A stretch of 64,000 nucleotides of DNA, from contig CAVQRZ010000028.1 in assembly GCA_963715335.1 (NCBI GenBank), positions 1 through 64,000 of the forward strand, in the 5' to 3' direction. The number at the start of each line of letters is the position of its first letter. Position 1 is the stretch's first letter. The stretch comes from an uncultured delta proteobacterium. GTDB lineage: Bacteria > Desulfobacterota > Desulfuromonadia > Desulfuromonadales > BM103. The notes under the pieces were generated by a model. That model saw nothing but the letters and a program-made list of their open reading frames with translations, was not told the origin of the DNA and did not search any database. Both the position numbers and the translations under genes were made by a program. This document shows positions 1-20,135 of this stretch, in pieces.

Positions 1-1
1 C

Positions 2-1090: not shown

Positions 1091-1141
1091 ACTGGCTCCC
1101 GGCTGTCCGGGATGCTGACAAAATTCAGATTTCATATATAG

Positions 1142-1183: not shown

Positions 1184-1193
1184 TGAAATGCGT

Positions 1194-1615: not shown

Positions 1616-1646
1616 GTCTTTGAATTCCAGAGTACAATAGAAAAGG

Positions 1647-1671
1647 GCAACAGATTAACCCTCTGTTGCAC
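1647..1671. repeat. Second copy of the GCAACAGA..TCTGTTGC palindrome
   Basis: GCAACAGA-ttaaccc-TCTGTTGCAC matches the core of the 1142-1174 hairpin. Confidence 0.55.
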
Positions 1672-1867
1672 TAAGATTCATAGCGCCCCATCGGCCAAAC
1701 CCAAAAAATCCCGCATTATGTGTAGGATCTGATCAACGATCTGAGGCCGGCCCACGGACTGCCCTTTGTTTATGGAAGCAAACCTGCTATAACTTATAAA
1801 CTTGTGAGTCACGCCAGAATGAACCTGGACTGAGTTAATCGTTTGCACCGATAAAAGGGAGGAAAAT

Positions 1868-2899: not shown

Positions 2900-3828
2900 A
2901 AGCACCTGTGATCTTTTTTGTTGTCATTGCCCTGATTTTTGTCGGCATGGATGGCCTTTACGTGGTTAATGAAGCGGAGCAGGCAATCGTCACCCAGTTC
3001 GGTAAGCCGGTCGGTGATGTGGTCGGCTCGGGGCTGCATCTGAAAATGCCTTTCGTACAGAAAGTCACCCGTTTTGAAAAACGTATTCTGAAATGGGACG
3101 GCGACCCGAACCAGATCCCGACCAAGGACAAGCGCTTTATCTGGATCGATACCACGGCACGCTGGCGGATCAATGATCCGCTCCTGTTCTACACCACGGT
3201 TGCCACCGAGCGTGGCGCCATGAGCCGCCTCGACGATATCATCGACTCCGTGGTGCGTGATGCCGTCTCCGGGCGCTTGCTGGTGGAACTGGTCCGTGGT
3301 CGCGACTACCAGTCCCAGGCGGGTGGAGGAGAAGAGCGCTTTGAGGTTGAAGGTGTGGAAATTGCCAAGGAGAACCTGGTTGGCCGTGAGGAGATCATGG
3401 CCGGGATTCTCGAAAAGGCCCGAGCCAATACTCCTGAATACGGCATCGAACTGCTTGATGTCGTGATCAAGCGCATCAACTATGTCGAGCAGGTGCGGAC
3501 CCGGGTCTACGAGCGCATGATCAACGAGCGCAAGAAGGTCGCCGCCCAATACCGCTCGGAAGGCGAGGGCGAGAAGGCCGACATCCTCGGCCAGATGGAG
3601 CGTGAGCTCAAGAATATTAGTTCCGAAGCCTACCGCAAGGTGCTCGAGGTGCGCGGTGCCGCCGATGCCGAGGCTGCAGCAATATACGCAGAGGCATACA
3701 ACAAGGACAAGGAGTTCTACGCTTTCCTGCGGACACTCGAATCTTACAAGAAGTCGATTAAGGAGAACGGCCGTTTGGTGATCTCCACCGACTCAGACTA
3801 CTACAGGTACCTGAAACAGGCTCAGTAG
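2896..3828 (+). CDS. hflC: FtsH protease modulator HflC
   Basis: EQAIVTQFGKP, GLHLKMPF, VYERMINER, EFYAFLRTLESY; ATGA overlap with hflK. Confidence 0.95.
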   Translation: MKAPVIFFVVIALIFVGMDGLYVVNEAEQAIVTQFGKPVGDVVGSGLHLKMPFVQKVTRFEKRILKWDGDPNQIPTKDKRFIWIDTTARWRINDPLLFYTTVATERGAMSRLDDIIDSVVRDAVSGRLLVELVRGRDYQSQAGGGEERFEVEGVEIAKENLVGREEIMAGILEKARANTPEYGIELLDVVIKRINYVEQVRTRVYERMINERKKVAAQYRSEGEGEKADILGQMERELKNISSEAYRKVLEVRGAADAEAAAIYAEAYNKDKEFYAFLRTLESYKKSIKENGRLVISTDSDYYRYLKQAQ

Positions 3829-3843
3829 TCCTGGCTTGAGAAG

Positions 3844-4827
3844 ATGACGCTGAGTTCTCGTCAAACGTACCGTGATCTGCTCGACAAGCTGGTCACACAG
3901 GACGTCGGGCAATACGCTTTTGACGTGCCGCTGTCCGGCCACAATAGCTGGCAGATCGGCGGCCCGGCCGATCTGCTGGTTGAGCCCGACCGGGCTGAGC
4001 AGGTGGTCGCGGTTGTCCGCTTCGCCAGCCAGTTCCGGATTCCCCTGGTCGTCATCGGCCAGGGGACCAATCTGCTCTTTGACGATGCCGGCCTGCGCGG
4101 CGTCGTGCTCAAGCTGGGCGAGAATTTTTCCACCATCACAATCGAAGGCAACCACATCACCGCCGAGTCCGGAGCCTGGGTCCCGGGCTTGGCGCGCAAG
4201 GCGATGCTGGCCGGCCTGGCCGGGCTCGAGCACATAATCGGCATTCCCGGCACGATAGGCGGGCTGGTCCTGATGAACGGGGGCAGCCAACGCAAGGGCA
4301 TTGGGGAGAATGTGCGCCGGGTCCAGTTTGTCGACCGCGAGGGTGAGATGCGCGAGCTGAACCGTGAGGAGTGTATATTCTCCTACCGGAAGAGCGCCCT
4401 GCAGGGGATCGGCGCCGTGGTGGTCAAGGTTGAACTGGAATGCGAGCGCCTGGATTCACGGCGAATCCGTCGCATGATGCTTGATGACCTGCGCGAGCGT
4501 CGACGCAAGTTTCCACGCAAGGAGCCGAATTGCGGCTCGGTCTTTCTAAGCACCAGTGAAATGCACGCAAGTGTCGGCCCGCCCGGGAAAATTATCGAGG
4601 AGGCGGCTCTGAAGGGCTTTCGCATTGGCAATGCCGAAGTGTCGCATCAACATGCCAACTTCATCGTCAATCGTGGCGGGGCCACGTCCAGGAACGTGCT
4701 CGACCTGATCAGTCACATCCGCCGGACGGTCAAGGAAAGAATCAGTTTCGACCTTGACTGTGAAGTCCGTTATGTCAGCCCGACCGGGGACATTCTACCG
4801 GCGCACATGGCTGGTCGACAGAACTGA
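3844..4827 (+). CDS. murB: UDP-N-acetylenolpyruvoylglucosamine reductase
   Basis: IGGPAD, IGQGTNLL, GIPGTIGG, FSYRKS, NCGSVF, HANFIVN, final EV motifs. Confidence 0.9.
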   Translation: MTLSSRQTYRDLLDKLVTQDVGQYAFDVPLSGHNSWQIGGPADLLVEPDRAEQVVAVVRFASQFRIPLVVIGQGTNLLFDDAGLRGVVLKLGENFSTITIEGNHITAESGAWVPGLARKAMLAGLAGLEHIIGIPGTIGGLVLMNGGSQRKGIGENVRRVQFVDREGEMRELNREECIFSYRKSALQGIGAVVVKVELECERLDSRRIRRMMLDDLRERRRKFPRKEPNCGSVFLSTSEMHASVGPPGKIIEEAALKGFRIGNAEVSHQHANFIVNRGGATSRNVLDLISHIRRTVKERISFDLDCEVRYVSPTGDILPAHMAGRQN

Positions 4828-5221
4828 TTGCCTCTACACCAGCCCCGACCTGTTCCACCCATTCCAGCACTTCGGTCAGTCGAAAAGGTTTTCTGATCAC
4901 ATGCAGACCTTCTCCCATGATCTGTCTCTCCTCCTCATCGGTTATGGCGCTGCTCATGATTGCCTTGTTGCACAATGGGATTTTACAGCCATTTTCAGAC
5001 AAACCGGTCAGGGCTTCGACGACGGACAAAGTGGGCCTTTTCATGTTGACAATGACCGCATCGGCACAAGCCGTGCTAGACGGGCACTGGTTGTCACCGA
5101 GGAGATTGAAGGAACAGATGTGTGGTTCGGGGAAGGCCCGGACCTTGTGACCATGATTGGTCAGGAGGGTTTTCAGTCTCTCCAGGGTTGATATGTCGTT
5201 GTCGAAGATAGTGACTTTCAC
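4775..5221 (-). CDS. Atypical single-domain response regulator (Cys-rich insert, Asn at the phosphoacceptor position)
   Basis: Receiver fold pattern VTIFDND..AVIVNMKRP..AIMSS..VIRKPF; likely GTG start 5221 (ORF track 5329); overlaps the murB 3' end. Confidence 0.7.
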   Translation of the reverse strand: MKVTIFDNDISTLERLKTLLTNHGHKVRAFPEPHICSFNLLGDNQCPSSTACADAVIVNMKRPTLSVVEALTGLSENGCKIPLCNKAIMSSAITDEEERQIMGEGLHVIRKPFRLTEVLEWVEQVGAGVEAISSVDQPCAPVECPRSG

Positions 5222-5461
5222 GGCGGTGTTCCCCGGATCAAAGCAAATGATATATACTTTTCTGCATTTTTCGGGCCTTTCCGTGTAACATGCTGAAATA
5301 ATAGAGTTGTAACTGTTTTCCTGGGGCACGTGGCCGCCAATTGACGGACTGTCACTTGTGCAGATCTCAGGGTTTCGGTGATTTGCCCAGATTTGTCCTG
5401 ATCATCGATTTCGGTGTATTATGAAGTCTCAATGCTGGTTGCGAACTGTCAGGATGATAAG

Positions 5462-5767
5462 ATGACCGCTCGAAATGAGATTATTCTGGAAACCGAAAGC
5501 GTCCGTGTCCGCATCATGTCCCTCGAAAACTGCGCAGCGACGGCGTGGCATTATCACACCGAGGTAACGGACAACATGTTCTGCCTGGACGGACCTATTG
5601 CCGTCGAATTCCGGAACCCCGGCGAGCGCATCGAACTCGTCAATGGCCAGCACTGTGATGTCTCTGTCAAACGGGTGCACAGAGTTGTCAACCTGAGTAC
5701 ACGGCAAGCTAAATATCTTTTGGTCCAGGGTATTGGACACTATGATTTTAACGTGGTGGAGGAATGA
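5462..5767 (+). CDS. Cupin domain protein
   Basis: WHYHTEVTD and HRVVN cupin motifs; probable ATG 5462 (ORF track 5414). Confidence 0.85.
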   Translation: MTARNEIILETESVRVRIMSLENCAATAWHYHTEVTDNMFCLDGPIAVEFRNPGERIELVNGQHCDVSVKRVHRVVNLSTRQAKYLLVQGIGHYDFNVVEE

Positions 5768-6017
5768 GGGGTGGGAATGTTGAATCGGTTTGTGATGTTA
5801 CTGTAGGGGATTTCCCTGGAACAAAGCGTTAATATTCAGTCCTCAGGGTTGAAAAGGGTGGCCTGTAAAGCCTGGTGTGATGCAGCCATTCAATTTAACA
5901 GTACTACAGAAAACCCCAACCTGCACAAACGGGAAGGGGACGATTTTGCTTCAGTAGTGATCTATAGAACCCCCCGAAATCCTCAAATTTAAGGCTTCTC
6001 TCATAGCCGGCCTGTTT

Positions 6018-6905
6018 TTAGAACTGAAAATTCAGAGTCATGGTCAGGTCGTTACGCAACTGGTTTGTGAGTGACAGGTTCCACTTCCGTGCGGCCTTTG
6101 TCGCCCCGTAGACGTTGCCAAGATAGAAAGGCAAGCCTATGCCGCCGACAATTCCAGCCAAGGCGTAGTTTTCATCGTCAATTGCGGCAACGGTTCCCGC
6201 GATAAACAGGCTGTTGACCAAGAAAGCCATGAGGCCGTCTTGGTAATGTTCCGCGTACATCTGCCCGCTACCAGGGATGACAGTGGACAATGCACCGGCC
6301 AGGGCCGGGGATTTCCTTGGCCGCGCTTCGTAAGCATCAAGAAGGCTGAATGAGTCCTGGATTTTGCTTGACCGCTCATCTTCAGGATAATTAACTCGGA
6401 AATTTATCAATTCGGACCGAGTTTTGGGGATGTCATCCTGTGCCGTAGCGTTCAGAATCAGACCAACATGAGCATTGACTGCGTCGGGGTGTTTTACGTC
6501 AAATAGACGGGCTCGTTCGTATGCCAGGGCCGCGGCGTCAGGCATGCCGAGTTTTTCATAACTCAGCCCCTCGTAAAAAGCTGCACTGCTGAAATAGCTG
6601 GACGCGTAGGTCTGTCGTACCTTGGCAAAGCTCTTTACTGCCGAAGCGTAATCTTTCCCCTTGTAATAGGCCGTGCCAATCTCGTAGAGGGCCTCCGGCA
6701 GGCGCGCTGAATCCGGGAAGAGAATAACCAGCTTTTTGTATTCCGTGATCGCTCTATAGTAGTCCCCCTCGGCCATAAAGGCGTTCCCCAAAACCATCTG
6801 GAGATCATCGGTGAGTTCAATCCCATGCGCTTCCCTCGCGGCATGCCCATGACAGAACAAAAGCAATAGCAGCAGGATTACAGGAAGGACGTTTTGTTTA
6901 CTCAT
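6018..6905 (-). CDS. Exported TPR protein with C-terminal hydrophobic TM2-like region
   Basis: Signal peptide, TPR repeats (GDYYRAITEY, ALYEIGTAYY), KSPALAGALSTVIPGSGQMY; probable ATG 6905. Confidence 0.8.
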   Translation of the reverse strand: MSKQNVLPVILLLLLLFCHGHAAREAHGIELTDDLQMVLGNAFMAEGDYYRAITEYKKLVILFPDSARLPEALYEIGTAYYKGKDYASAVKSFAKVRQTYASSYFSSAAFYEGLSYEKLGMPDAAALAYERARLFDVKHPDAVNAHVGLILNATAQDDIPKTRSELINFRVNYPEDERSSKIQDSFSLLDAYEARPRKSPALAGALSTVIPGSGQMYAEHYQDGLMAFLVNSLFIAGTVAAIDDENYALAGIVGGIGLPFYLGNVYGATKAARKWNLSLTNQLRNDLTMTLNFQF

Positions 6906-7353
6906 AGCTGGCTCGACTGGTTTTTTCGACCGGATCGTGCAAAGCCCCATTCGGCAACCGAGGATAATCCATGCCCGGCTCAGTCCAGTAACTGCAGCGC
7001 ATGAGACGATCAGCTGTCATGACGACTCCTGCGAAGGGGCCGTGTTCGTGAACTGCGTCGTAGCCAAACTGGGAACAAGTTGGCGAGAAGCTGCAACGTT
7101 GTCCATCGACCGGCGAAAGCCATTTCTGAAAGAATCGCACACTCCCTAATAAAGTGGAGCTTAGGATTGAAGATGGTGTGTCAGGACGAGGGGGCTGAGA
7201 TGTCGAGACCTGAATCCACTGTGGTGATTTCATGTCACGGGTCTCCAGGCCTTGTGCCGTGCAGGTTGTGCCATGCAAAAGCCAGAGGACAAGAAACCCC
7301 GCACAAAAACCGGCGGGGCTTCGCATGTATAAAGATTGAGTCAAACCATGCAT
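6898..7353 (-). CDS. YidD-family (membrane protein insertion efficiency factor-like) protein with N-terminal extension
   Basis: FQKWLSP..RCSFSPTCSQF..ADRLMRC..HDP signature; start uncertain (7353 or 7326). Confidence 0.8.
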   Translation of the reverse strand: MHGLTQSLYMRSPAGFCAGFLVLWLLHGTTCTAQGLETRDMKSPQWIQVSTSQPPRPDTPSSILSSTLLGSVRFFQKWLSPVDGQRCSFSPTCSQFGYDAVHEHGPFAGVVMTADRLMRCSYWTEPGMDYPRLPNGALHDPVEKTSRASYE

Positions 7354-7383
7354 GGCATCAGGTAGGAAAAGGATTAAATACGG

Positions 7384-7605
7384 CTAGTCAGCCTTAAGAA
7401 TCTTCTCTTTCGCCTTTTCAAATTCCTCGTCTGTGATAGCGCCTTGATCATGGGCGGCCTTAAGATCCTGTAGTTGCTGCCCGGCAGTAGCACCACCACC
7501 TTCAGGAGGAGCAACAACAACGGTCTCCTTGCCGCCGCCACAGCAGCCGGCCAAAACAACCGCCATGACAAGAATGACCAAACCACTAACGAGAGAGCGT
7601 TTCAT
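7384..7605 (-). CDS. Small lipoprotein with SHOCT domain
   Basis: Lipobox LAGC; QLQDLKAAHDQGAITDEEFEKAKEKIL; RBS AGGAGG. Confidence 0.85.
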   Translation of the reverse strand: MKRSLVSGLVILVMAVVLAGCCGGGKETVVVAPPEGGGATAGQQLQDLKAAHDQGAITDEEFEKAKEKILKAD

Positions 7606-7748
7606 TTGTAACCTCCTAAGGCAGATAAAGTATTATGGGGAACCGCTGGGATGGAACAGGCCACGATTTTCATAATAATGTGCAGTTCCATTTATGACAA
7701 GGGTTTTGGTTGGCTTGCTGTTTTCGGCTCGGCAGTGGTGATAAATAG

Positions 7749-7982
7749 TTAGATGTCTCTATATAACTCAAGCTGATTTCTCCCGTTCTCCTTGGCTCGA
7801 TAGAGTGCGTCGTCGGCCCGTTTAACAAGTTCCTCGTCAGAAAGGGCTGCCCCTGCGGCCATGGTTGCGACGCCAAGACTTAAGGTCACAACTTGCACGG
7901 GCAATGATTTCTCATGCGCAATCATGAGAGACTCAACAGCCGTTCTGATTTGCTCGGCAATATGTATAGATTCTCTCTGTTG
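7749..7982 (-). pseudogene. C-terminal remnant of a GGDEF diguanylate cyclase
   Basis: Manual translation IAEQIRTAVESLMIAHEKSLPVQVVTLSLGVAT..LVKRADDALYRAKENGRNQ; in-frame stop upstream at 7983-7985 and no GG(D/E)EF motif. Confidence 0.8.
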
Positions 7983-8178
7983 TTAATCCTCCCGCATTGT
8001 CAGCACAGCTTGAAAATACAAAATGCGACTGCCCCTGATTTCTCCGGCCATCAGGGATGCCAGAAGCCATCTGTAGAGAATCGCAGATCCCAGCCAATTA
8101 TCTCGCCAAATCACAATATCCCGCTTTTTCGCTTATAAACACCGCCATACCTAATAGTAAAATCAGGCACTTATGATA

Positions 8179-8194
8179 TGGCACGCAGAATGCA
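8179..8194 (+). promoter_or_regulatory. Putative sigma-54 (-24/-12) promoter
   Basis: TGGCACgcagaATGCA, GG-N10-GC spacing, about 110 nt before the DUF1328 gene. Confidence 0.55.
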
Positions 8195-8305
8195 TACTAA
8201 AGCAGTAATGTATGCGTGATTCAAAGTAGTATCTTGTTGGTCGGGAATATAATTGTTGATGCAGACAAATGCTAACAAGAAAGATCCCTGAGTGGAGGCA
8301 CAGCG

Positions 8306-8503
8306 ATGCAAACAAAAAGTAATACAGGGAAAAAATTAAGGTGGGACATGATTTTCTTCTTCAATGCTTTAGCTGCGGCGATATTCAGTTTCAGCGAGAT
8401 TGCTCCTGTTGCTGCCGGAGTCGCCAAGGGCTTTTGCTACATCTTTCTGATCTTTTTCGTGCTTTCCCTGTGTAATCTATTCTTAGAGAAAGCTTTAGAG
8501 TGA
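8306..8503 (+). CDS. DUF1328 (YtjA-like) small membrane protein
   Basis: LRWxxIFF..AAIFSFSEIA..AAGVAK..IFLIFFVLSL pattern; RBS GGAGG. Confidence 0.75.
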   Translation: MQTKSNTGKKLRWDMIFFFNALAAAIFSFSEIAPVAAGVAKGFCYIFLIFFVLSLCNLFLEKALE

Positions 8504-8538
8504 CATTCTTGCCACAACTACGCGAGAGGCAGGAATGG

Positions 8539-8573
8539 AGCAGCCCCCGGGAAGGCCGGGGGCTGCTTTTTTT
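8539..8573 (+). terminator. Intrinsic terminator
   Basis: AGCAGCCCCCGG-gaagg-CCGGGGGCTGCT plus T-run. Confidence 0.85.
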
Positions 8574-8710
8574 GAATTAAAGGGTGCCATGACTCTGCCT
8601 ACCAATAACACCCCCGTTTTCGACTTAGCAGTGGTTATGACTTAGACGTATTTTCAGTTTCTCGATAAGGTTTGTCATGGTGCTACCCAAGGTGTCCCAA
8701 TCGCCGCATA

Positions 8711-10405
8711 TTACGAATTGGGGCTTCTCAACAGGGCTAGAAATTCAGTGTAACTGGAGGACATCAAGGCCCGTTCGCTCAAGCCCTCAGTGCGAAAGGT
8801 TGCCGCAATGTCGGCGAGGATCTCCAACTGTGCGCCGTTGTCATGCAGCGGGGCGAGGATCATGCAGATGATGCGTACCGGGATACCGTCCGGAGCATCG
8901 AAATCGACACCCTGGTGCGCCAGGCCGACCGCCACAAACGGCCGGTCGAGCCCTTCGAGTCGCGCGTGCGGCACCGCCACTCCCCTGCCGATGCCGGTCG
9001 CCATGAGCTGCTCACGGGAGAGCACAGCATCGGCGACCACATCGGGCGGCAACCCAACCAGCGCGGCAAGACGCCAGCTCAGTTCACGGATTACCGCCTC
9101 GCGGTCGCCAGCTTTGAGCTTTTTGAAAAAGGCATTGGCCGCAAGGTAATCGATCATCCGGCGCGGCCGCTTGAGATGCAGGATATACTGAAGCACCGGC
9201 CCGCTTAGAATCGAAGTGGCCAGCGCCATGACCACCAGCGAAACAAATACTGTCGAAGAGATCAGGTTGATCTGCAAGGCCAGAACACCGAGAATGATCC
9301 CCATTGTCCCCTGAGCGCTCATGCCGAAGCCAACAGCCCAAACTTCTCGTTGCGGCAGCCCACCCCAGTGACCGCCCAGAGAACTGCCCAACACTTTACC
9401 GGTTACGGCCAGGGCCATCAGCACCAGCGTCAACTGCAGGTTGAAATGGGCCAGGAAATCGACCCGCAGACCGATGCTGGCAAAAAACAACGGCGCGAAA
9501 ATGAAGGAGATGAACTGGTCAATGGTGGCGCGGGTCTGTTCGCGCAGGTGGCGTGACTGACCGAGGGCCACTCCGGCCAGAAAAGAACCGAAGATGGCAT
9601 GGATACCGAGCCACTCGGTGAAAGCGGCAGCGAACAGACAAAAGGAGAGTGCAAAGCCAAGCACTACTCCAGGACCACTAGTATAGGCCAGGGCAAATGC
9701 CAGAAGGTGGTTGATGACCCATGGCACGAGAGTCAGCATTATCAGGGTGAAACTGATCACTATGCCGATGGTCGTGCCGATCGGCAGCCCTTGCCCATGG
9801 ATGACACCCATCTGACCAAGGATGACGGCGAACACCAACCAACCGAGCAGGTCGTTAAGCACCGCGGCAGCGACCATGGTGACACCGAGTTCGCTGCGAT
9901 AGATATTGAGATCCATGAGAATCTTGACGATAATCGGCAGCGCCGAAATTGACAGCACCGTAGCCATAAACAAGGAAAACGCCAGGTGGTCGGTGCCCGC
10001 CTGCCAGCCTAACAGAGCCGGCAACCACCAAGCCGCGGCAAAGCCGAGGCCAAAAGGCAGCAGCATGCCGCAAAGTGCCACCGTCAAAGCCGCGCGTCCT
10101 CTACGCCAGACCGTGGCCAAATTGATTTCCATTCCAGCTACCAGCAAAAACAGGGCAATAGCCAGCGTAGTCAGGCCTTCCAGCATCAGTGCCCCGTTAC
10201 CCCGGGCCGGGAACAGGGCGGCGCTCAACCCGGGCGCCAAATGACCAAGCACGGTCTGTCCGAGCAATATGCCGGCGAGGATCTCACCGATCACCGACGG
10301 CAGGCTGAGTCTGCGGGCCATCTCGCCCAGTACCCTGGCGCTCAGGAGCAGGGTGCCGAGTGCCAGGAACATGGTGGTGATTTCGTGAGGTTGCAAGTTA
10401 TCCAC
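8711..10405 (-). CDS. Cation/H+ antiporter (CPA2-like) fused to a C-terminal PTS EIIA domain
   Basis: Many TM segments with IGEILAGILLG, AAAVLNDLLGW, APLFFASIG; C-terminal REQLMATGIGRGVAVPHAR and GVDFDAPDG. Confidence 0.9.
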   Translation of the reverse strand: MDNLQPHEITTMFLALGTLLLSARVLGEMARRLSLPSVIGEILAGILLGQTVLGHLAPGLSAALFPARGNGALMLEGLTTLAIALFLLVAGMEINLATVWRRGRAALTVALCGMLLPFGLGFAAAWWLPALLGWQAGTDHLAFSLFMATVLSISALPIIVKILMDLNIYRSELGVTMVAAAVLNDLLGWLVFAVILGQMGVIHGQGLPIGTTIGIVISFTLIMLTLVPWVINHLLAFALAYTSGPGVVLGFALSFCLFAAAFTEWLGIHAIFGSFLAGVALGQSRHLREQTRATIDQFISFIFAPLFFASIGLRVDFLAHFNLQLTLVLMALAVTGKVLGSSLGGHWGGLPQREVWAVGFGMSAQGTMGIILGVLALQINLISSTVFVSLVVMALATSILSGPVLQYILHLKRPRRMIDYLAANAFFKKLKAGDREAVIRELSWRLAALVGLPPDVVADAVLSREQLMATGIGRGVAVPHARLEGLDRPFVAVGLAHQGVDFDAPDGIPVRIICMILAPLHDNGAQLEILADIAATFRTEGLSERALMSSSYTEFLALLRSPNS

Positions 10406-10867
10406 GGCTGAAGTTCGGCAGGGGGTTCCTGTCCAAGGAGGCTCGAATAGACTAACTACAAGTCAATATATTGGTATGATATCTGATTTTCTCAACTGAG
10501 CTAGTGGAAACCATTAAAGAAAGATAAAAATACTTTATTTTCGGACAGGGTTTCTACCGGCATTCGGGCTATGGTGTTCAATACGACGGCTATTTTTGTC
10601 CCGGGCGTTGTAACTTTTGTGATCTTTCCACCAGGGCCTTCGATGGTTTTTTAACTATAGGCTTCCGAACGGCGAAATTGCTTAGCATCCTTCGTTCAAG
10701 AATAGTATCGAGTGAGATTGTCGTCGAAGCGGCCGAAGAATGCAAAGTGCCAAGCACAGAAATCCCCATCGACTTCGTAGTGGCTCTTGATGTATATTCT
10801 TCGTGTCTCCCTGAATGTTGGGGACTGGCAATTTGATGCGTAAGCGGTCGGAACCCAAACAAAAGTC

Positions 10868-11227
10868 ATGTCAAGTCTGTTGTATCGCCTGCATCCTTCT
10901 CCACGGCGAGTGAGATGCTGGCTCGGGCTTTTCGTCATCTCCTGTCTTTTTCTCAGTCACGGAGCCTGTACTAAAGAGACGCTTACAACGGCCCTGTCGT
11001 TGTCGCTGTCCACATTGCCGCCAGCGCAAGAGCAGTCAATCCTCCCCTATCCCAAACTGCAAATCGTTCATCTCCTGTCCGTTCAGTTTTACTCCGCATC
11101 ACCTGAGACATCGTTCCTGACGGACCCCGGTCCGTCGGCTCGCCGTTCCCAGTTCGACGACTTCCATCCTCATTCCTATACACTGGCGTGGCCATCCCAG
11201 TTTTTGCCGCGACCACCGAACTGCTGA
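10868..11227 (+). CDS. Small putatively exported leader protein ending in PRPP (candidate arrest peptide)
   Basis: Basic then hydrophobic N-terminus (RRVRCWLGLFVISCLFLSHGA), S/P/T-rich linker, C-terminal FLPRPPNC; directly upstream of secF; no clear RBS. Confidence 0.5.
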   Translation: MSSLLYRLHPSPRRVRCWLGLFVISCLFLSHGACTKETLTTALSLSLSTLPPAQEQSILPYPKLQIVHLLSVQFYSASPETSFLTDPGPSARRSQFDDFHPHSYTLAWPSQFLPRPPNC

Positions 11228-11367
11228 TCCCGCTATTCTCCTGTATCTAAAAGATAAGCATACGGCCGAGCCTTGCTACTCTTCGTCCCGAGGTCTCTCC
11301 CTTTGGCGGTGACTATCAGTGTGCCAGCCTGGAACAATCACAGCAGAACATTCAAGTGGAGCTATAT

Positions 11368-12297
11368 ATGGAACTCATCAGGCCGCAGACCAAGTTTGAC
11401 TTTGTTGGCAAAAATCGTTTTGCGGTGACCATCTCCTTGGTGGTCATCGCCGCAGGGCTGCTATCCCTGTTGCTCAAGGGTGGCCCCTCTTACGGAGTGG
11501 ATTTCGCCGGAGGGACACTGGTCCAGGTGCGGTTCGCTGAACCCCAGCGCAGCGACGATATCAAGGAAGCCCTGGCCGGGCTGGGGCTGAGCAATATTAC
11601 CGTCCAGCAGTTCGGCGATCGCGAGGGTGAATTTTTGATCCGAACTCCGGATGCAGACGACGAGACAGACCAATTCTCCAAACGCTTCGAGCAAGTGCTC
11701 ACAGACAGATATGGAGAGGGCAGGCTAGAAATCGTGCGCACAGAGATGGTCGGCCCCCAGGTTGGCAAGGATCTTCGACAAAAAGGGGCTATGGCGCTGA
11801 TTTACGCTATGGCCGGGACATTGATCTACATCGCCTGGCGATTCGATCTCCGTTTTGCCGTTGCTGCCATTGTCGCCCTGGTTCACGACGTGCTGATCAC
11901 CTTGGGATTTTTTTCAATCTTCGATAAGGACATCGACCTGCCGATCATTGCGGCTTTCTTGACAATCATCGGTTATTCCCTTAACGACACGATCATCATT
12001 TACGACCGGATTCGCGAACACCTCGGCAAAACCGCTGGAGAAGACTTTGCCGGCCTGGTCAACCGCAGCATCAACGAAACCCTGTCGCGAACGATTCTGA
12101 CCTCGGGGACCACCTTGCTGGTCGTTCTCTCCCTGTTCATTTTCGGTGGCGGCGTGATTCATGACTTTGCCTTCGCCTTGCTGGTTGGCATTATTTCGGG
12201 CACCTATTCCACCATTTTCGTGGCCAGCGCCCTGGTCCTGTTCTGGGAAAAGCACCATCCAGGCAAGATTCAGGCGGCCCTTCTTGGTCGCAGCTAG
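11368..12297 (+). CDS. secF: Protein translocase subunit SecF
   Basis: GVDFAGG, VGPQVGKDL, IIGYSLNDTIIIYDRIRE, SINETLSRTILTS, GTYSTIFVAS; probable ATG 11368. Confidence 0.95.
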   Translation: MELIRPQTKFDFVGKNRFAVTISLVVIAAGLLSLLLKGGPSYGVDFAGGTLVQVRFAEPQRSDDIKEALAGLGLSNITVQQFGDREGEFLIRTPDADDETDQFSKRFEQVLTDRYGEGRLEIVRTEMVGPQVGKDLRQKGAMALIYAMAGTLIYIAWRFDLRFAVAAIVALVHDVLITLGFFSIFDKDIDLPIIAAFLTIIGYSLNDTIIIYDRIREHLGKTAGEDFAGLVNRSINETLSRTILTSGTTLLVVLSLFIFGGGVIHDFAFALLVGIISGTYSTIFVASALVLFWEKHHPGKIQAALLGRS

Positions 12298-12358
12298 TTT
12301 TTGTCCAGCTGTATGGGTTTGAGAAAAGGCAACGGCGCCGGTCAGACGGTGCGGAGAG

Positions 12359-13132
12359 GTGGACATGGTTGAAGAGACGCGCTTGTCTATGGGCCTTCTG
12401 GAGAGCCTGCGAAGACGGCTGATGCTTGCCGGAGGCTGCTGGCTGGTCAGTTTCATTCTGCTGCTGAGCGTATCGGGTCGGCTCTTCAGCCTGGTCTCCG
12501 CACCCTTGCAGCGAGCCTTGCCGGCAGGTGGTTCGCTGGTGTTCCTCTCGGCGACGGAGCCCATATTGACTTATCTCACCGTTGCCGCCGTAACGGCTCT
12601 GGTCGTTTCGTTGCCGGTGGTGCTGTGGCAGCTCTGGGCGTTGATTGCTGAAACCGGTTCGGTTCAGACGCGCGGCGCCGGGGTGGTCTTCGCCCTGACC
12701 GGCTTTCTCGCATTTCTGGCTGGGGCATGGCTCGGGTTTTACTATGTCTTTCCCACCATCATCAAGGTGCTGCTGCGGATGGGCGAGGCCACTGGGGAAC
12801 TCGACGCCATGCTGTCGATGGGTGACTACCTGGCCCTGGCCATGAAAATGATGGTAGCCTTCGGACTGGTTTGTGAATTGCCGGTAGTTATGGTCGCCTT
12901 GTCCCGTATGCAACTTATCGATCGCGGCTGGTTCATCGCCAAGCGCAAATACATGGTCATCGTCGGTTTCGTCTTCGGTGCGGTCATCACTCCTGGGCCG
13001 GATGTCTTCTCCCAATGCTCGATCGCCATTCCTTTTGTTATCCTCTACGAGGTGGGCATTCTTGGTTGCCGCGTGTTTGGCCGGGGGGCCGCGCCCCCGG
13101 TTCAATCCCCGCGGATGACGCAGCCGTCGTAG
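12359..13132 (+). CDS. tatC: Divergent twin-arginine translocase subunit TatC paralog
   Basis: Six TM segments, LRRRL, SAPL, QLWALIA, AFGLVCELPV, ITPGPDVFSQ, LYE. Confidence 0.85.
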   Translation: MDMVEETRLSMGLLESLRRRLMLAGGCWLVSFILLLSVSGRLFSLVSAPLQRALPAGGSLVFLSATEPILTYLTVAAVTALVVSLPVVLWQLWALIAETGSVQTRGAGVVFALTGFLAFLAGAWLGFYYVFPTIIKVLLRMGEATGELDAMLSMGDYLALAMKMMVAFGLVCELPVVMVALSRMQLIDRGWFIAKRKYMVIVGFVFGAVITPGPDVFSQCSIAIPFVILYEVGILGCRVFGRGAAPPVQSPRMTQPS

Positions 13133-13183
13133 CGCTGCCTGCTGTTCGACGATGACTTATGGTCGGGTCCCGCAACTTCTTCT

Positions 13184-13852
13184 CTACCTGAAATCAGCGA
13201 TCACCGTTCCTGCCTGGCGGACTTCTTTTTCGTGCTCTTCATCTCGCCAGACTTCACCCAGTGCCGAATCATACCACTCCTTCATGGACGGCAGGGAAAG
13301 GAGTTTATGGGTGTATTGCAGAGATATCTCAGACAGTTTTGGCGCGTACGTTTGAACACGGAAGGCGACGGGGGCAAAAAACGCATCGACTGCAGTGAAC
13401 GACTCGCCGGTTAAAAATGCCCCGCCGAACCGAGAAAAGCCATCATTCCAGAGCTCATCGATGCGATCGAGGTCGTTAAGCAATGCCGGTGGACAGGGAT
13501 CAATCCGCACTCGCAAGCCACAGTTCATGGGGCAAATACCGCGCAGGCCTGAAAACCCGGAATGCATTTCCGCAGCAGCGGACCGCGCCCAAGCTCGTGC
13601 GCCCCTGTCTGCAGGCCATACATTGGGAAATTGCTCTGCCAGGTACTCGACAATGGCCAGTGAATCCCAGACCACGGTATTGCCGTCCATAAGGCAAGGG
13701 ACCTTTCCAGAAGGAGAGAATACGCGGAAGGCGTTTGTCTCGCCAAACGGACGCAATTCTTCCTGGAAGGGAATCCCCAGTTCGCGCAGGAGGACCCAGG
13801 GCCGCAGTGACCAGGAAGAGTAGTTCTTGTTGGCAATGTAGAGGCGAAACAT
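13184..13852 (-). CDS. Glutathione S-transferase family protein
   Basis: NKNYSSWSLRPW, SPSGKVPCL, VWDSLAIVEYLAE, AEMHSGF. Confidence 0.92.
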   Translation of the reverse strand: MFRLYIANKNYSSWSLRPWVLLRELGIPFQEELRPFGETNAFRVFSPSGKVPCLMDGNTVVWDSLAIVEYLAEQFPNVWPADRGARAWARSAAAEMHSGFSGLRGICPMNCGLRVRIDPCPPALLNDLDRIDELWNDGFSRFGGAFLTGESFTAVDAFFAPVAFRVQTYAPKLSEISLQYTHKLLSLPSMKEWYDSALGEVWRDEEHEKEVRQAGTVIADFR

Positions 13853-14136
13853 AAAAACCCTGTCGTATGATTAGTTCGCGGCCTGAAAAGTGGCCAAGGA
13901 ACAAAGATGCCATGAACTCTTTAGGATACTTCTAGCACCCGCTGTAAACTTTGCAACTTGTGACAAAATCGACGGGACAAGGCTCTCCTGATTTATCACC
14001 AAGCACGTTTCCTTGCCACAAGCTTTAATTGCCATAATTCTGAAAGATTTGACGTAAGAGAAAATGGCCACCCGGCAGATCCAGGTGGCCATCATTTTGT
14101 CTTCCTGAATGGCTATCAATAAGTCGCCTGTTTTCG

Positions 14137-14160
14137 TCCCGCAAGTCATGACTTGCGGGA
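14137..14160. repeat. Perfect 24-bp palindrome
   Basis: TCCCGCAAGTCATGACTTGCGGGA equals its own reverse complement. Confidence 0.8.
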
Positions 14161-14198
14161 ACAAGTCGACATCAATAACTGACTGCACAATAATCGAT

Positions 14199-15671
14199 TC
14201 AGCCCTTGTTCTGACTCTCTATCTCCATTTCCTCCCCAAGTCTTAGTACAGCCTCCAACAAACCGTCGACTTGCGATTGTTCTGCACGTGCCCCCACATA
14301 GCAGGGGCGAAGCGCTAACCGCCCTTTTACCCGGGTGGTACTGGGCATATATTGATTCTCCCTTACCAGACGGCGATGAAGTCTTTGGTTAAATTGGTCA
14401 AGGTCAGTAATCTTGGGGGAAACGTAACGAAAACAACAGATAGAAAGTGTCGGTTCAACCAGGACTTCCAGATTAGGATGCCCTTTTGCATATTGGGCAA
14501 GGTAGCGGGCCATCGCATTATGTCGTTTCACTCTCCGGCTCATCCCCTGAACACCAATTTCCCGAATCAATGCCCAAACCACAACCCCACGGCAAGGAGA
14601 ACTCAACTCGACGCCGAAATCAAAATAGGGGATACCAAAGTCGTCCATCGAGTGTTCTATCGCTGAGCAGGCAGTGTCCTCATGTTCTACTGACCCTTCC
14701 AGGTAGTCGGCTGGCTCTTGAGTAAATGCACGGTATAAAATCTGTCTGTCACGAACAAACGTAGCTGCTACGCCAACAGACGCGCCAAGCCATTTGTGAG
14801 GGTCAACAATAACCGAATCTGCCAAGTCAAGGCCTTTGAAGAGGTGGCTGACCTGTTCGTCCAAAATTCCGGGCAGGCCATAAGCCCCATCTACATGGAA
14901 CCAGATCGAATTTTCAGCGGCAATTTCACCCAGGACCTGTAGAGGGTCGATTGCTCCCGTGTTGGTCGTGCCCGCATTGGCGACAATGGCAACTGGCAGC
15001 CTTCCCGTTGCCTTGTCTTCTGCAATCGCTTGCCGTAAAGCCTCTGGTTGCATACGGCCCTTATTATCACAAGCGATCAACTTCACTGCATGCCGTCCGA
15101 GGCCCAAGACACCACAGGATCTCTGAATAGTGTGATGACACTCTTCGCTGGCATAAACGGAGGCCTGCCGGTTGACGCCATCCGCCGAAGGATCATGCCC
15201 GATCTTTTCAAATGCGGACTGTCGAGCCCCGCCCAGGGCAACGAGATTTGCAACTGAGCCACCACTGCTATAGACACCCTGCATGCTTTTAATGCCACAC
15301 ATTTCTGCCAACCATTGTAAAGACAGTTCTTCCAGAAAATTGAAAGCGGTATGCATATAGCGTTGCGGAGAAGCGATGCTTGCTGCAGCGGAAGCCAGTG
15401 TTGAGGCAGTCGTCGAACCGGTCGTAATGAAAGAGCTAAAGCCAGGTCTGGGAACCGGTGAACCGTTAGGAATAATTTGCTTGATGAGGTCCTGAGTGAC
15501 CTGCGCAATACCGACCCCCTGTTGAGGCAGGGGGATGTCTAAAAACTCACGCCAGTTATTGCCAGGGTGCAGTGCGTCTGGGTGTTCAAATTTTAAATAC
15601 TGATCCAGGCCAGCCCCCACCTGCGCCAATAATTTCTGTAAATTACCGGTCTCAGCCTGTTCATTAAACAT
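14199..15671 (-). CDS. Group II PLP-dependent amino acid decarboxylase
   Basis: SGGSVAN, AGTTNTGAIDPL, WFHVDGAYG, DPHKW (PLP lysine); probable ATG 15671 with RBS GGGAG. Confidence 0.9.
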   Translation of the reverse strand: MFNEQAETGNLQKLLAQVGAGLDQYLKFEHPDALHPGNNWREFLDIPLPQQGVGIAQVTQDLIKQIIPNGSPVPRPGFSSFITTGSTTASTLASAAASIASPQRYMHTAFNFLEELSLQWLAEMCGIKSMQGVYSSGGSVANLVALGGARQSAFEKIGHDPSADGVNRQASVYASEECHHTIQRSCGVLGLGRHAVKLIACDNKGRMQPEALRQAIAEDKATGRLPVAIVANAGTTNTGAIDPLQVLGEIAAENSIWFHVDGAYGLPGILDEQVSHLFKGLDLADSVIVDPHKWLGASVGVAATFVRDRQILYRAFTQEPADYLEGSVEHEDTACSAIEHSMDDFGIPYFDFGVELSSPCRGVVVWALIREIGVQGMSRRVKRHNAMARYLAQYAKGHPNLEVLVEPTLSICCFRYVSPKITDLDQFNQRLHRRLVRENQYMPSTTRVKGRLALRPCYVGARAEQSQVDGLLEAVLRLGEEMEIESQNKG

Positions 15672-15963
15672 AACGACTCCCCTGTAGTGAGAATAAACGA
15701 CCAGCAGAACTTGGCATGGTTCTCCAGTGGACAGCGTTTTGAGTTCCAAAGTACAAGTTACTACCAATTAAAGACCAGTCAAGTCACCTATTGGATTGAT
15801 TGAAAATTGATGGCATCCAAACAGTTAACCAGGGCGGTTTTCCAATAACCCCTGACGAATAAGAAACGGCCACCCGAAATCGATCCGGTTGGCCAGTGTT
15901 TTGTCCTCATAAAGGGCTCTATCAATGACACGCCTGCTTTCATCCTGGCAGGCGTGACTGTAA

Positions 15964-16161
15964 GAAAAAAACCCCACAGCTCTGGAGGTAGAGACTGTGG
16001 GGCAAGCTTTTCTATGTTTAGGAGGTTTTGAAGAAGATTATCTCTGACCCGCCTGCCACAGCAGGCCTTCGATGGTTGTTAATTTATCGAATCCTTCAAT
16101 AAAAAGATACGTGGTGTCTGGTAAAAATTGACTCTACATCACACGAAAATGAACTGTGCAA
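15964..16161 (-). ncRNA. Putative sRNA, copy A of a CCTCC-motif family
   Basis: Minus strand GGGTC..ACCTCCT..GCCCCACAG-tctctaCCTCCagag-CTGTGGGG-T run; homologous to 28262-28465 and 57731-57822; 5' end uncertain. Confidence 0.55.
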
Positions 16162-16290
16162 TGACGCACTACCGAGGATCCGATTGATAGCGATCAAGTC
16201 CGCGCCTATTTAAGTCTTGGCAGTGGAGATAAACAATAATTGCAGCGTAACTCAACAGTGCGCTTCTTCATGTCAGCTGGACTCGTCTTT

Positions 16291-16692
16291 TTAATCACGG
16301 TCTCCCAAAAAATCCCCCGAAGCGATTACTGGCAACCCTTCGGTAGGCCGATTGTATAAATAGACCCATGCCGGCAGCTTTTGGCCGGGGCCTAGGACTA
16401 CTTCCTGCTTTACGCGCACATACTCCGTGGGTTCAGTGGCCATGGGGCCACACCCTTCGTACTGATCAAGGGTGGAAAGTAGTCTCGCAGGCTCATGGAG
16501 GGAGTATACCTCACCTTTCACCTGCTGAGTTGGGTCGTCTGAAGGTACGGTGCCAGGGTAGTCGTCAATTCTGTACAGTCGACCCTGGTATGTTGCTTCG
16601 CCCACAAAAACCGCACAGCGAGCGAGGAGATGGTACATCTCGCTTGCTGTATCTCTTCTCAGGGTGCCATATACGAACAAGTACTCCAGCAT
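16291..16692 (-). CDS. Gamma-glutamylcyclotransferase (AIG2-like) family protein
   Basis: LFVYGTLR, VKGEVY, LDQYEG, AWVYLY. Confidence 0.9.
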   Translation of the reverse strand: MLEYLFVYGTLRRDTASEMYHLLARCAVFVGEATYQGRLYRIDDYPGTVPSDDPTQQVKGEVYSLHEPARLLSTLDQYEGCGPMATEPTEYVRVKQEVVLGPGQKLPAWVYLYNRPTEGLPVIASGDFLGDRD

Positions 16693-16850
16693 TTCCCCTT
16701 ATCCTTCAATCCTCACACTTGTTGGCAGAAATGCGAGATTCCTGCTAACCATGCATGCTGAGAAACCAACACGACCATGCAGTTTCAAAATGGGACTCAC
16801 AGGGTTGCCAGTTCTATCTTTCAACGCGAGATTACAAATACCTTTTTGAA

Positions 16851-17075
16851 CTAGCGAAGCGGATCGAACAGGGATTCGAGACCGTTTAATTTTATCTCGT
16901 AGACAGCGCGCAGTCTTCTCCCAAGCGGCCCCTCCGGGAAGCCCTGGTTGGCGAACCAGACCAGGTAATTCTCCGGCAGGTCAATGAGCCGGCGGCCCTG
17001 GTATTTGCCGAACGGCATGCGCGCTTGTGCCAGATCCACAAGCTCCTTGTGTCCGGAATCGACATCACTGCTCAT
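16851..17075 (-). CDS. DUF3820 family protein
   Basis: MPFGKYQGRRLIDLPENYLVWF..GFP..EIKLNGLE. Confidence 0.9.
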   Translation of the reverse strand: MSSDVDSGHKELVDLAQARMPFGKYQGRRLIDLPENYLVWFANQGFPEGPLGRRLRAVYEIKLNGLESLFDPLR

Positions 17076-18076
17076 GATGGTTCAATCTTTGCGACCAGGT
17101 TGGCAAAGGCTGCCAGGCTCCTGACCCTTTTCAGCTTGCCGACCGACCGGGCAAATTCGGGCTGATCGAGAAACGCCAGAACGTTCTTGGCCTTGTCGAG
17201 AATCTGCTGTTCGCCACGGAAAAGTTCCTGGTAACGTTCCAGAACAGCGCCCATGTATTTGCGAATCATTTCCGCCGTTTCGACTGGCGTCGGTTCGTGC
17301 GTGCAGTGGCTTCTGATCCGGGCAAAGAGGAGCGGGTCGGCGATTGCGCCGCGTCCGAGCATCAACCCCGAGGCCCCGGTCGTCTCGAGCACCAGAAGCC
17401 CCTGTTTCGCGCTACGTATGTCGCCGTTGGCAATGACCGGTATTGAGGTCCGCTTAACCAGGCGTGCGGTGATGGAGTGGTCAGCCGAGCCGGCATATTT
17501 TTGCAGGACTGTCCGCGGATGCAGGACCAGGAAGTCGACCTGGTTGTCCTCGAACAGCGAGACCAGGGAAAAAACCTGTTCGGGGTCGCTGTAGCCGGCC
17601 CGCATTTTGATTGAGAAACTACCTGTAATCGCCTGGCGCAGGGCCGGTATGATGGCCGAAAGTCGCGCGGGGTCTTGCAACATGGCCCCGCCGGTTGCGC
17701 CGGTGGTCATGCGCCCGTACGGGCAACCCATGTTGAGGTTGATGTGGCGCGCCCCGGCGGCTTCAGCGTTGCGGGCGGCAGCGACCAGCGCCCGGGGGTC
17801 GTTGCCGACCAGCTGCGCCACCAGCGGAACGCCTCCGGTTGCGCTGCCGGCCTCGGTCAGGTCGTTGCGGGCCAGGCGCTTGCGGCTGACGTTGCTGACT
17901 CGCATGAACTCGGTAAAGACCACGTCGGGGCGAACCCAATTTATAAACAGGTCCCGCATTGCGCGATTGGTCAGCCCCTGCATCGGCGCCAGCATAATCG
18001 GGGTTTCACCTTGCCGCCACGGCAGCTTGCTGTGTATGCAGCCTCCCTGGTCAGTCGATGATCTGTTCTCGTTCAT
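17072..18076 (-). CDS. tRNA-dihydrouridine synthase family protein
   Basis: LAPMQG, NLNMGCP, SIKMRAG, LHPRT, PVIANGDI, GLMLGRGA. Confidence 0.9.
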   Translation of the reverse strand: MNENRSSTDQGGCIHSKLPWRQGETPIMLAPMQGLTNRAMRDLFINWVRPDVVFTEFMRVSNVSRKRLARNDLTEAGSATGGVPLVAQLVGNDPRALVAAARNAEAAGARHINLNMGCPYGRMTTGATGGAMLQDPARLSAIIPALRQAITGSFSIKMRAGYSDPEQVFSLVSLFEDNQVDFLVLHPRTVLQKYAGSADHSITARLVKRTSIPVIANGDIRSAKQGLLVLETTGASGLMLGRGAIADPLLFARIRSHCTHEPTPVETAEMIRKYMGAVLERYQELFRGEQQILDKAKNVLAFLDQPEFARSVGKLKRVRSLAAFANLVAKIEPS

Positions 18077-18095
18077 GGTTTGCGTCTTCGACGGG

Positions 18096-19977
18096 TTAAT
18101 CGCTCAGGGCGTCCAGCTCTTCCCAGCGGCTATAGGTTGCGGCGAGTTCCCGTTCAATTTCTTCTAGCCTTGTATTGACTTCTGCGACCGTAGCTCCCGC
18201 GGTCCGGTAGAACTCCGGGTCGGCGATTTTCTCGTGCAGTTTGGCGACCCCCGTTTCAAGGCTCTCGATTCGCAAAGGCAGCTCATTGAGCTCCTGTCTT
18301 TCCTTGAAGGTCAACTTTCGCGGCCGCTCTTTTTTCGGCTTGCCACGGTTAAGGGGCTTTTCCTTGTCAGGCGACGATCGAGTTTTGCGGCCTCTGGTGC
18401 AGCCAGTCGTCATAGCCACCGACATACTCCCGTACCTGGCCGTCTCCCTCAAAGGCGATGGTGCTGGTGACGACCCGGTTGAGAAATGCCCGATCGTGAC
18501 TGACCAGAAAGAGCGTGCCCTTGAAATCGGCCAGCAACTCCTCGAGCAGGTCCAGCGTCTCCAGGTCAAGATCGTTGGTTGGTTCGTCGAGGACCAGGAC
18601 GTTGGCCTCGCGAGTAAAAAGGCGGGCCAGCAGGAGCCGGTTCCGCTCTCCTCCGGAGAGGATGCGTACCGGGCTACGGGCTCGGTCGGGCGTGAACAGG
18701 AAATCCTGGAGATAACCGATCACGTGGCGTGACCTGCCGTCGATAACCACCGAATCCTGATCACCGGCAAGGTTCTGCTGAACGGTCAGGTTGGGGTCGA
18801 GCTGCTCGCGCATCTGATCAAAATAAAGTACGTGCAGGTTGGTGCCGAGCCGCACTGTCCCCTGTTGTGGCTTGATTTCACCCAGCAACAGTTTCAGCAG
18901 GGTCGTCTTGCCGATCCCGTTTGGCCCGATAATGCCGATCCGGTCGCCACGCAGGACCATGGCCGAGAAGTCACTGACCAGCGGTACTTTGTCATACGCG
19001 AATGACAGCCCCTTGACTTCGGCGACCAGTTTGCCGCTGCGTTCTGCCTCCTGCAGATTGAGACGCGCCGTACCGATACGTTCACGGCGCTGGCGGAACT
19101 CTTCGCGCATTTTCTTCAACGCACGGACGCGTCCTTCGTTGCGAGTCCGCCGGGCCTTGATCCCTTTGCGGATCCAGACCTCCTCCTCTGCCAGTTTCTT
19201 GTCGAAGCGGGCCTGCTCCTGTGCTTCGGCATTGAGCAGTTCATCCTTGCGTTGCAGGAAGGTGTCGTAGTCGCAGGCAAAGTCAAACAGGCGGCCACGG
19301 TCTATTTCGACGATGCGGGTCGCAAGCCTGCGCAGGAATGCCCGGTCGTGGGTGACAAAAACCAGAGTCAGGTTCTCACGCTGCAGAAACTCCTCGAGCC
19401 AGGTGATCGATTCGATGTCGAGATGGTTGGTCGGCTCGTCAAGCAACAGGATGTCGGGGTCGACTGCCAGGGCGCGCGCCAGAAGCACCCGGCGCAGGAT
19501 CCCCCCGGAGAGGCTTGAGACCGGTAGGTCGGTCGGCAGCTTCAGGCGGGAGAGGACTTGCTCGATACGCTGCTGGTGTGACCAGCCGTCGCTGCTCTCG
19601 AGGCGCTGCTGAACCTCTGTCAATTGGCTGCTCAGGCCGGTTTCACCACTGTCCGCGCGCCGGGTGAGGTCGTGATAGCGGACCAGCAGGGCCCCTGTTT
19701 CAGCCAACCCTTGTGCCGTAGCTTCGTAAATGGTCCCCTGCAGGTTTCTGGGGACGTCCTGCTCCAGGCGTGCGACCCGCAACCCCTGCTGGCGGTCGAT
19801 GAGTCCGCCGTCAGCCTGTATTTCGCCGGCAATGACCTTCAAGAGCGTGGATTTCCCCGTGCCATTGCGTCCCAGCAGAGCGATACGCTCACCTTTTTGT
19901 ATCCGCAGGGAGATATCCAGGAGCAGGGGGGGGCCGCCGAAGGCGAGGTTTATATTGCGCAGGTTGATCAGTGCCAT
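18096..19977 (-). pseudogene. uup: ABC-F ATPase Uup, frameshifted before the C-terminal coiled-coil domain (real lesion or sequence error)
   Basis: Two ABC domains (GRNGTGKST, GPNGIGKTT, DEPTN) in 18367-19977; the Uup tail KLTFKERQEL..LPLRIESLE..YSRWEEL continues in the +1 frame to 18096. Confidence 0.85.
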
Positions 19978-20135
19978 GGGATTGCTTTCCGTGGTAAAGA
20001 CGGAATTATGGCAGAGCCTTCCGAAGATGAAAAGTAAAATGGGATATTTCTGCGAGCCTTGATTTTCAATGTTTTCTTGAGGCCTTGATGTTAGACTGAC
20101 TACCCGTTGTTAACGGTTATATCAGGAGTCTGAGA

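Follow-up and report, generated by a model that had tools for sequence, protein, structure and literature searches.

The window analysed here, a 64,000-nucleotide stretch of DNA, carries three co-oriented genes on the + strand: a 119-aa leader ORF, a secF and a tatC, which we call secF2 and tatC2 (Table 1). These genes and their flanks, a divergent antiporter and a convergent GST gene, are as an earlier note on this DNA described them. The secF is complete (TIGR00966 score 326 against a cut-off of 160), has no secD beside it and encodes both the Asp of SLNDT (11986-11988) and the Arg of TLSRT (12088-12090), which are invariant in 19/19 SecF2 proteins. The gene proposed in the note stands, with its start moved by homology from GTG 11356 to ATG 11368.

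Table 1. Features of the leader-secF2-tatC2 module and its neighbours
Feature	Position	Strand	Basis
119-aa leader ORF, putative export monitor of the ribosome-arrest type	10868..11227	+	n-region, h-region, spacer, C-terminal motif; dN/dS
Leader h-region, signal-peptide-like	10922..10954	+	Kyte-Doolittle 11-residue window 2.8
Leader Arg-Pro-Pro-Asn (RPPN); family consensus (L)PRPPP	11210..11221	+	Family alignment
Last leader codons, predicted anti-SD arm pairing with secF ribosome-binding region	11209..11227	+	Duplex -16.9 kcal/mol
Partner arm containing secF2 Shine-Dalgarno GGAG (11358-11361)	11340..11363	+	Duplex and fold prediction
secF2, stand-alone SecF paralog, 309 aa, Asp207 and Arg241 present	11368..12297	+	TIGR00966, clade, dN/dS
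tatC2, TatC paralog; possible start ATG 12365	12359..13132	+	TIGR00945, residue pattern, dN/dS
Na+/H+ exchanger fused to PTS EIIA, divergent neighbour	8711..10405	-	Context gene
GST gene, convergent neighbour of module	13184-13852	-	Context gene

A canonical queA-tgt-yajC-secD-secF locus is present elsewhere in the genome (C25), with a SecF 60% identical to SecF2. There is also a tatB-tatC pair (C9; TatC 47% identical to TatC2), and a tatA-family gene stands apart (C31). The secF and tatC of the window are therefore extra copies, as the note had supposed. The order leader-secF2-tatC2 recurs in six genomes (G000, G053, G009, G221, G214 and G097), and dN/dS below 1 for all three genes speaks against neutral decay. 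The relatives that bear names are Desulfuromonadales.

The module sits at a variable site: its flanks (window about 1600-5950 and 16800-20000) are joined on one module-free contig in G002 and in G004, and no second secF or tatC was found in four same-genus genomes (83-96% complete). G020 holds a close leader homolog (L296:6128-6466), with nothing kept past leader codon ~92 and with secF2 and tatC2 absent. The block, which includes the divergent exchanger-PTS EIIA gene beside the 5' part of the leader, is 89% identical and ends before the motif; on sequence comparison this leader is a deletion remnant. The module is thus dispensable, being missing from the four same-genus genomes and truncated in G020. 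A promoter and terminator scan gave chance-level counts (2 vs 1.6 and 3 vs 3.1), RNA run X20 yielded two 151-nt contigs over the leader, too little for a firm reading, and the small-share read runs X7-X20 carry no weight on habitat.

Two other features of the window were recorded. Positions 1100-1770 hold a dispersed, apparently non-coding repeat of ~500 bp (95 blastn segments in G000, many copies in G001-G004) with no Rfam match, which may be a MITE-like element. At 6018-7353 a YidD-like gene is followed by a TPR protein gene, with no yidC adjoining.

The paralogs SecF2 and TatC2

Two or more SecF matches were found in 23 of the 233 genomes of the order: 19 have a SecD-less secF (20 loci), three a fused secDF (G131, G201, G192) and one two canonical operons (G232). 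Two more genomes, G096 and G215, in which secF starts at a contig end, came from the leader profile, giving 22 SecD-less secF loci in 21/233 order genomes and seven families. Every one of these 21 genomes has exactly one secD match (one match partial), and secD does not adjoin secF2 as it does in a SecDF operon or in the VemP-type secD2F2 arrangement. In a careful tree of 38 rows (19 SecF2 and 19 chosen canonical SecFs), made after an earlier quick one, SecF2 formed one clade (support 99/97) nested among the order's canonical SecFs. Family f1 has three SecF2 copies, each in a different subclade, while the canonical SecFs that go with them cluster at 100/99; this suggests that SecF2 spread horizontally. 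SecF2 is under purifying selection, with NG86 dN/dS of 0.12-0.22 (14 pairs) compared with 0.05-0.19 for secF1 (7 pairs). The single secD per carrier genome, the single clade, the purifying selection and the retained essential Asp (TM10) and Arg (TM11) together indicate that SecF2 probably swaps into SecDF, and we regard a partnership with SecD1 as likely.

A change of coupling ion through the SecF swap is a doubtful further step. At position 199 (TM10) 16/19 SecF2 have Thr, against Ala in 45/45 canonical Desulfuromonadales SecFs. Thr199 is also found in 61/63 SecFs of other taxa and agrees with the proton-driven SecDF of Thermus and Deinococcus, while E. coli has Ser; it was rejected as a marker of ion specificity because the VemP-linked Vibrio SecF2 has Ala. 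Comparison with canonical, other-taxa and Vibrio SecF2 sequences identified no ion-switch residue in SecF2. The genes that follow secF2, other than tatC2, include a Ca2+/Na+ antiporter at four loci (that of G044 was scanned) and, at further loci, genes that we take to be CPA2-like, P-type-ATPase-like or CBS/MgtE-like. Separately, a Desulfomonile plasmid (L298:1123-6282) carries a small unannotated ORF with no RxPP end, together with secD, secF and a cation:proton antiporter.

TatC2 is recognized narrowly by the TatC profile (TIGR00945, 140.3 vs cut-off 132.7). Its gene follows secF2 at 6 of the 19 loci with downstream sequence, with spacing that includes a 4-nt overlap in G221 and 5 nt in G214. 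Of the five residues defined as binding the twin-arginine signal (H12, E15, F94, Y100 and E103; PMC13323110, excerpts), TatC2 in the window has none, so that the site of a functional TatC receptor is absent, and the six TatC2 keep 0, 2, 0, 0, 0 and 1 of the five. By comparison, canonical TatC has H12, E15, F94 and E103 in 32/32 and Y100 in 31/32 sequences. The polar site for TatA/B (T208 and Q215, M205 left out) is nevertheless retained, together with E170, D211 and E227 (E. coli numbering), in 6/6 TatC2.

Among the 120 best TatC homologs, 88 have a TPGPD signature, and these keep at most two of the five twin-arginine-site residues in 42 cases, three in 9, four in 12 and all five in 25; the 32 homologs that lack the signature keep four or five. 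This graded pattern indicates that TatC2 originated within a TatC subgroup whose twin-arginine site was intact, and that some copies have lost more of the site than others. The TatC homolog of a cultured species, Desulfuromonas soudanensis (P0014), has 2/5. A quick TatC tree placed five of the six TatC2 together (98); the G097 copy was not placed. Of 29 metagenome loci returned, 14 were examined and 10 were TatC2-like: six lie after secF, two directly after an RPPP leader, one has no upstream sequence and one another neighbour. Twin-arginine-degenerate TatCs also occur with neither secF nor leader (L137:1060-2736, after htpX in G071; L312; L050), those other than the htpX-linked one forming a separate subgroup. 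In G188 (L129; 95% complete, 640 contigs) the only tatC found encodes Pro in place of both H12 and Y100.

In E. coli TatC the F94A/E103A change abolishes signal binding, and dominant-negative changes lie almost all in the periplasmic cap (PMC5102672, excerpts), so a signal-blind subunit need not poison the complex. We put the chance that TatC2 joins the Tat complex at about even. TatC2 could instead be a once-normal second TatC in slow decay under relaxed selection, the leader-secF2 pair alone being what matters. The replacements at the site do vary by lineage, two secF-linked metagenome copies (L303, L311) retain 4/5 residues, branches are long, most secF2 loci are without tatC2, and the N-terminal half has the higher dN/dS (0.18-0.50). 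However, the loss is site-specific, since 39 of the 42 homologs with at most two twin-arginine residues keep all of E170, T208, D211, Q215 and E227, and whole-gene dN/dS is 0.14-0.40 (15 pairs, dS mostly >1) with frames intact over deep divergence. We therefore consider decay the less likely account, though one with some appeal.

The earlier note had joined SecF2 and TatC2 in one alternative unit, which would be a SecD-independent membrane machine (an insertase or quality-control unit) under leader control. The two genes are adjacent in six GTDB genomes of four families and in 6 of the 10 TatC2-like metagenome loci; a TatC2 that no longer has the twin-arginine site could take on a new role, and the htpX-linked copy in G071 is another TatC with a degenerate site. 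Yet tatC2 is missing at 13/19 secF2 loci, two metagenome loci (L306, L310) have leader and tatC2 with no secF between, and TatC2 retains its TatA/B contacts. SecF, moreover, supplies one half of a pseudo-symmetric TM bundle, and the third essential residue of that bundle belongs to SecD (PMC5974789, excerpts); the single secD of the genome is the natural partner of SecF2. With linkage at 6/19 loci and leader-tatC2 pairs that dispense with secF, such a machine is not supported and appears improbable. What survives of that proposal is induction under export stress, to which the anatomy of the leader points.

The leader family

The leader, which has no Pfam or NCBIfam match, appears to be the decisive element that the earlier note missed, because it is built like a ribosome-arrest export monitor. 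At this locus it has a basic n-region, hydrophobic residues 19-29, an 85-residue spacer and a C-terminal arrest-like motif. The N-terminal signal, judged by hydropathy and charge only, is present in all 34 aligned family members (net positive n-region; hydrophobic windows 2.19-3.33, Kyte-Doolittle, 11 residues), and the spacer from h-region to Arg is 81-90 residues in 34/34. The middle of the leader is poorly conserved. The motif, RPPP in 29 members, RSPP in 4 and RPPN in 1, lies 0-7 residues before the stop, and its Arg is invariant. An upstream ORF of ~120 aa with RPPP was found at 21/22 SecD-less secF loci, the 22nd being the RPPN leader of this locus; these lie 108-298 nt before the secF start. 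Chance would give far fewer: counted over both strands, G000 has 68 RPPP motifs no more than 8 aa from a stop, or 0.010 per kb and ~0.003 per 330-nt window. The loci share descent, but the leaders at SecD-less secF loci are only 18-34% identical to that of this locus.

Leader dN/dS was 0.20-0.74 in 14/14 informative pairs, a 15th pair being identical. Across 19 loci the motif Arg is encoded by CGT (11), CGC (4), CGA (2) and AGG (2), and all four Pro codons occur; since synonymous codons vary, the motif is conserved as protein. The same variation argues against a non-coding RNA, and no Rfam match was found in window 1-20000. The 12 database homologs of the leader all terminate in RPPP, and one (P0010) is from a cultured species, Geoalkalibacter halelectricus. 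Three leaders are incomplete as assembled: G180 (contig end), G221 (across two contigs) and G054 (a stop in the N-terminal part). An assembly error behind RPPN was ruled out, because contigs of runs X1 and X2, one possibly the source sample, match this allele gap-free and RPPN also occurs at a diverged metagenome locus (L304). A Tat substrate was ruled out as well, an RR pair being present in just 12/34 n-regions.

By the four criteria that PMC10987492 uses to screen for monitoring substrates, the leader qualifies: it is a small uORF of unknown function before a sec/yidC gene, has an N-terminal signal or TM segment, and ends in a conserved motif after a spacer of >30 aa. The family falls outside the RQH motif set (RAPP, RGPP, HAPP, QAPP, RAGP and RAPG; Fujiwara 2024); by analogy it may work like the RQH arrest peptides, yet we do not class it as a member. 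ApdP with RPPP arrests in B. subtilis near the wild-type level (2.4 vs 1.9 units), and RPPP arrest is only partial in ApdA and in E. coli (PMC12992588, excerpts). Asn in the A site is wild-type-like in ApcA and among the better residues in ApdP, but ApdA and ApdP need Pro where the present leader has Asn (PMC7897499, excerpts). The predicted arrest at this locus may thus be weak. By its construction, the leader is very probably an arrest-based export monitor.

The end of the leader is predicted to pair with the secF2 ribosome-binding site (RBS). The duplex at this locus (-16.9 kcal/mol) was the best among 19 leaders for this RBS. Over 19 loci (near-identical G190 left out), cognate duplexes averaged -16.1 kcal/mol, whereas leaders paired with the RBS of another locus averaged -14.2 kcal/mol (p 0.002 by permutation, ignoring kinship and shared base composition); two control segments gave p 0.15 and p 0.09. 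Helices were clear in G054, G097, G180 and G189, and where G054 and G097 differ by a G-C/A-U exchange the helix is kept. When stalling was modelled, the cost of opening the RBS fell at 15/20 loci and rose at 5/20. At this locus the cost fell from 5.6 to 4.7, a gain of 0.9 kcal/mol; here the arm pairing was seen in both the MFE and the centroid structure, and the whole-region z of 0.08 was no better than shuffles.

Related leaders precede other genes. A first leader profile matched 23/401 class genomes and 0/200 outside the order, and a second matched 37/233 order genomes at E 0.01 and, weakly, 2/400 phylum genomes. Leaders ending in RxPP stand before nhaD in seven genomes of one family (the nhaD of G082 was scanned), the RPPP leaders so linked being L261, L287, L288, L290, L291, L293 and L246, several of which start with GTG. 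Others precede lpxD (2), a membrane pyrophosphatase (1) and an ActP-type operon (1). The genes behind five leaders, presumably MarR-like, had no NCBIfam match at 1e-15, and the gene pair behind one leader we take to be motAB. The GNTTKA motif of the pyrophosphatase and the Val eleven residues after the Asp of MotB are, we assume, of the proton type. The range of these genes, NhaD, pyrophosphatase, MotAB, ActP, LpxD and MarR-like, suggests that the family may be a wider ion-stress switch.

Some loci bear more than one leader. G192 has two in 6 kb (L135:652-1026 and 6024-6482), RPPP before the pyrophosphatase and RSPP before the ActP-type operon; an intact tatC of the TPGPD type separates the two. 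In G181 (L259:2931-4010) leaders stand back to back, RPPP towards secF2 and RSPP towards a MarR-like gene. At L310:1903-5701 an RPPP leader and tatC2 come directly before a RAPP leader, behind which a secD-type gene runs off the end of the locus.

The poorly conserved middle, and the departure of this copy from the consensus, would suit an ordinary small exported protein, or a proline run that simply causes an EF-P-sensitive pause and takes no part in feedback, but the invariant Arg before the prolines at 0-7 aa from the stop, the fixed spacer, the recurrence before many unrelated membrane genes and the cognate RBS pairing make this very unlikely.

Proposed mechanism and known systems

We think there is a good chance that the module is a stress switch of these sediment bacteria in which monitoring of export governs translation: a SecF that swaps in would be induced, and a signal-blind TatC would be carried along under the same control. 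The gene order, the conserved build of the leader, selection, the single secD and the residue pattern are computed results, whereas the following steps, from stalling to the role of TatC2, are inferred. The leader would act as a monitoring substrate: the signal at its N-terminus would take it into the Sec pathway, and the RPPP or RPPN near its C-terminus would stall the ribosome. Normal export would pull the nascent chain and release the stall; under poor export the stall would last longer, and the stalled ribosome would cover the anti-SD arm. Translation of secF2 could then start, with tatC2 coupled to it. SecF2 would replace SecF1 at the single housekeeping SecD and retune SecDF under stress, the likeliest trigger being a change in salinity or ion-motive force. 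TatC2 would bind no twin-arginine signal and, as a separately co-regulated passenger, would assemble with TatA, TatB and TatC1 as a signal-blind subunit.

A broader version is speculative, and we hold it only tentatively: RPPP leaders would be a Desulfuromonadales-wide gauge of ion-motive force, read via Sec export and recruited to non-Sec genes (NhaD, pyrophosphatase, MotAB, ActP, MarR-like, LpxD). At this locus both export routes would be retuned, the SecF swap altering the coupling ion of SecDF and the signal-blind TatC building asymmetric Tat complexes.

If the proposal is true, a natural RPPP/RSPP arrest family would be added and export monitors would extend from sec/yidC to ion-homeostasis genes. 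SecF1/SecF2 pairs on one SecD would offer a clean test of the contribution of SecF itself, including Na+ vs H+ coupling. A bacterial TatC with no twin-arginine site and with TatA/B contacts kept would make the asymmetric-Tat idea, so far haloarchaeal, testable in E. coli.

The available portions of the open-access literature report no RPPP leader family, no arrest control of a lone secF or tatC and no bacterial twin-arginine-blind TatC, and the accessible part of the LudP preprint (10.64898/2026.10.26.761930) mentions neither RPPP nor Desulf-. The leaders may already be listed, through clustering, in the supplementary material of PMC10987492, probably in its secDF table, although the script of that paper has both RPPP and RSPP commented out in its list of motifs.

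Our working model, by analogy, is the Vibrio VemP system, in which VemP arrest induces SecD2/F2 once the Na+-driven SecD1/F1 falters (PMC11470409, excerpts). Both systems place a signal-bearing leader before a spare SecDF component, with the housekeeping secDF elsewhere (PMC11470409, PMC5974789, excerpts), but the arrest motif here is unrelated, secF alone is duplicated and tatC2 is co-located. SecM-secA and MifM-yidC2 (PMC7897499, excerpts) resemble the mechanism proposed here in the stall-driven unmasking of a downstream SD, and differ in motifs and target genes.

The RQH arrest peptides (including uDF_RQH_Desulfuromonadales) and ApdA/ApdP share with this family an N-terminal localisation signal, a spacer of >30 aa, a C-terminal Arg-x-Pro-Pro and a place before a secDF gene (PMC10987492, excerpts). 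The RQH motifs are RAPP/RGPP whereas those here are RPPP/RSPP/RPPN, and the present family is also found in front of genes other than sec. In G131 the fused secDF stands behind a RAPP leader whose length and numbering agree with those published (111 aa, R103), and G201 has a similar leader; neither matches the RPPP-family profile. The RPPP and RAPP types lie side by side at L310.

TatC2 finds its closest parallel in haloarchaeal TatCt, whose TatC units without F94 and E103 occur beside normal TatC and for which asymmetric complexes were proposed; the double TatCs of Chloroflexota and Bacillota all retain the twin-arginine site (2026 review, PMC13673990, excerpts). TatCt, as described there, is an essential, tatCo-linked 14-TM fusion, whereas TatC2 has a single TatC unit and is the product of an accessory gene that stands behind an arrest-like leader in bacteria.
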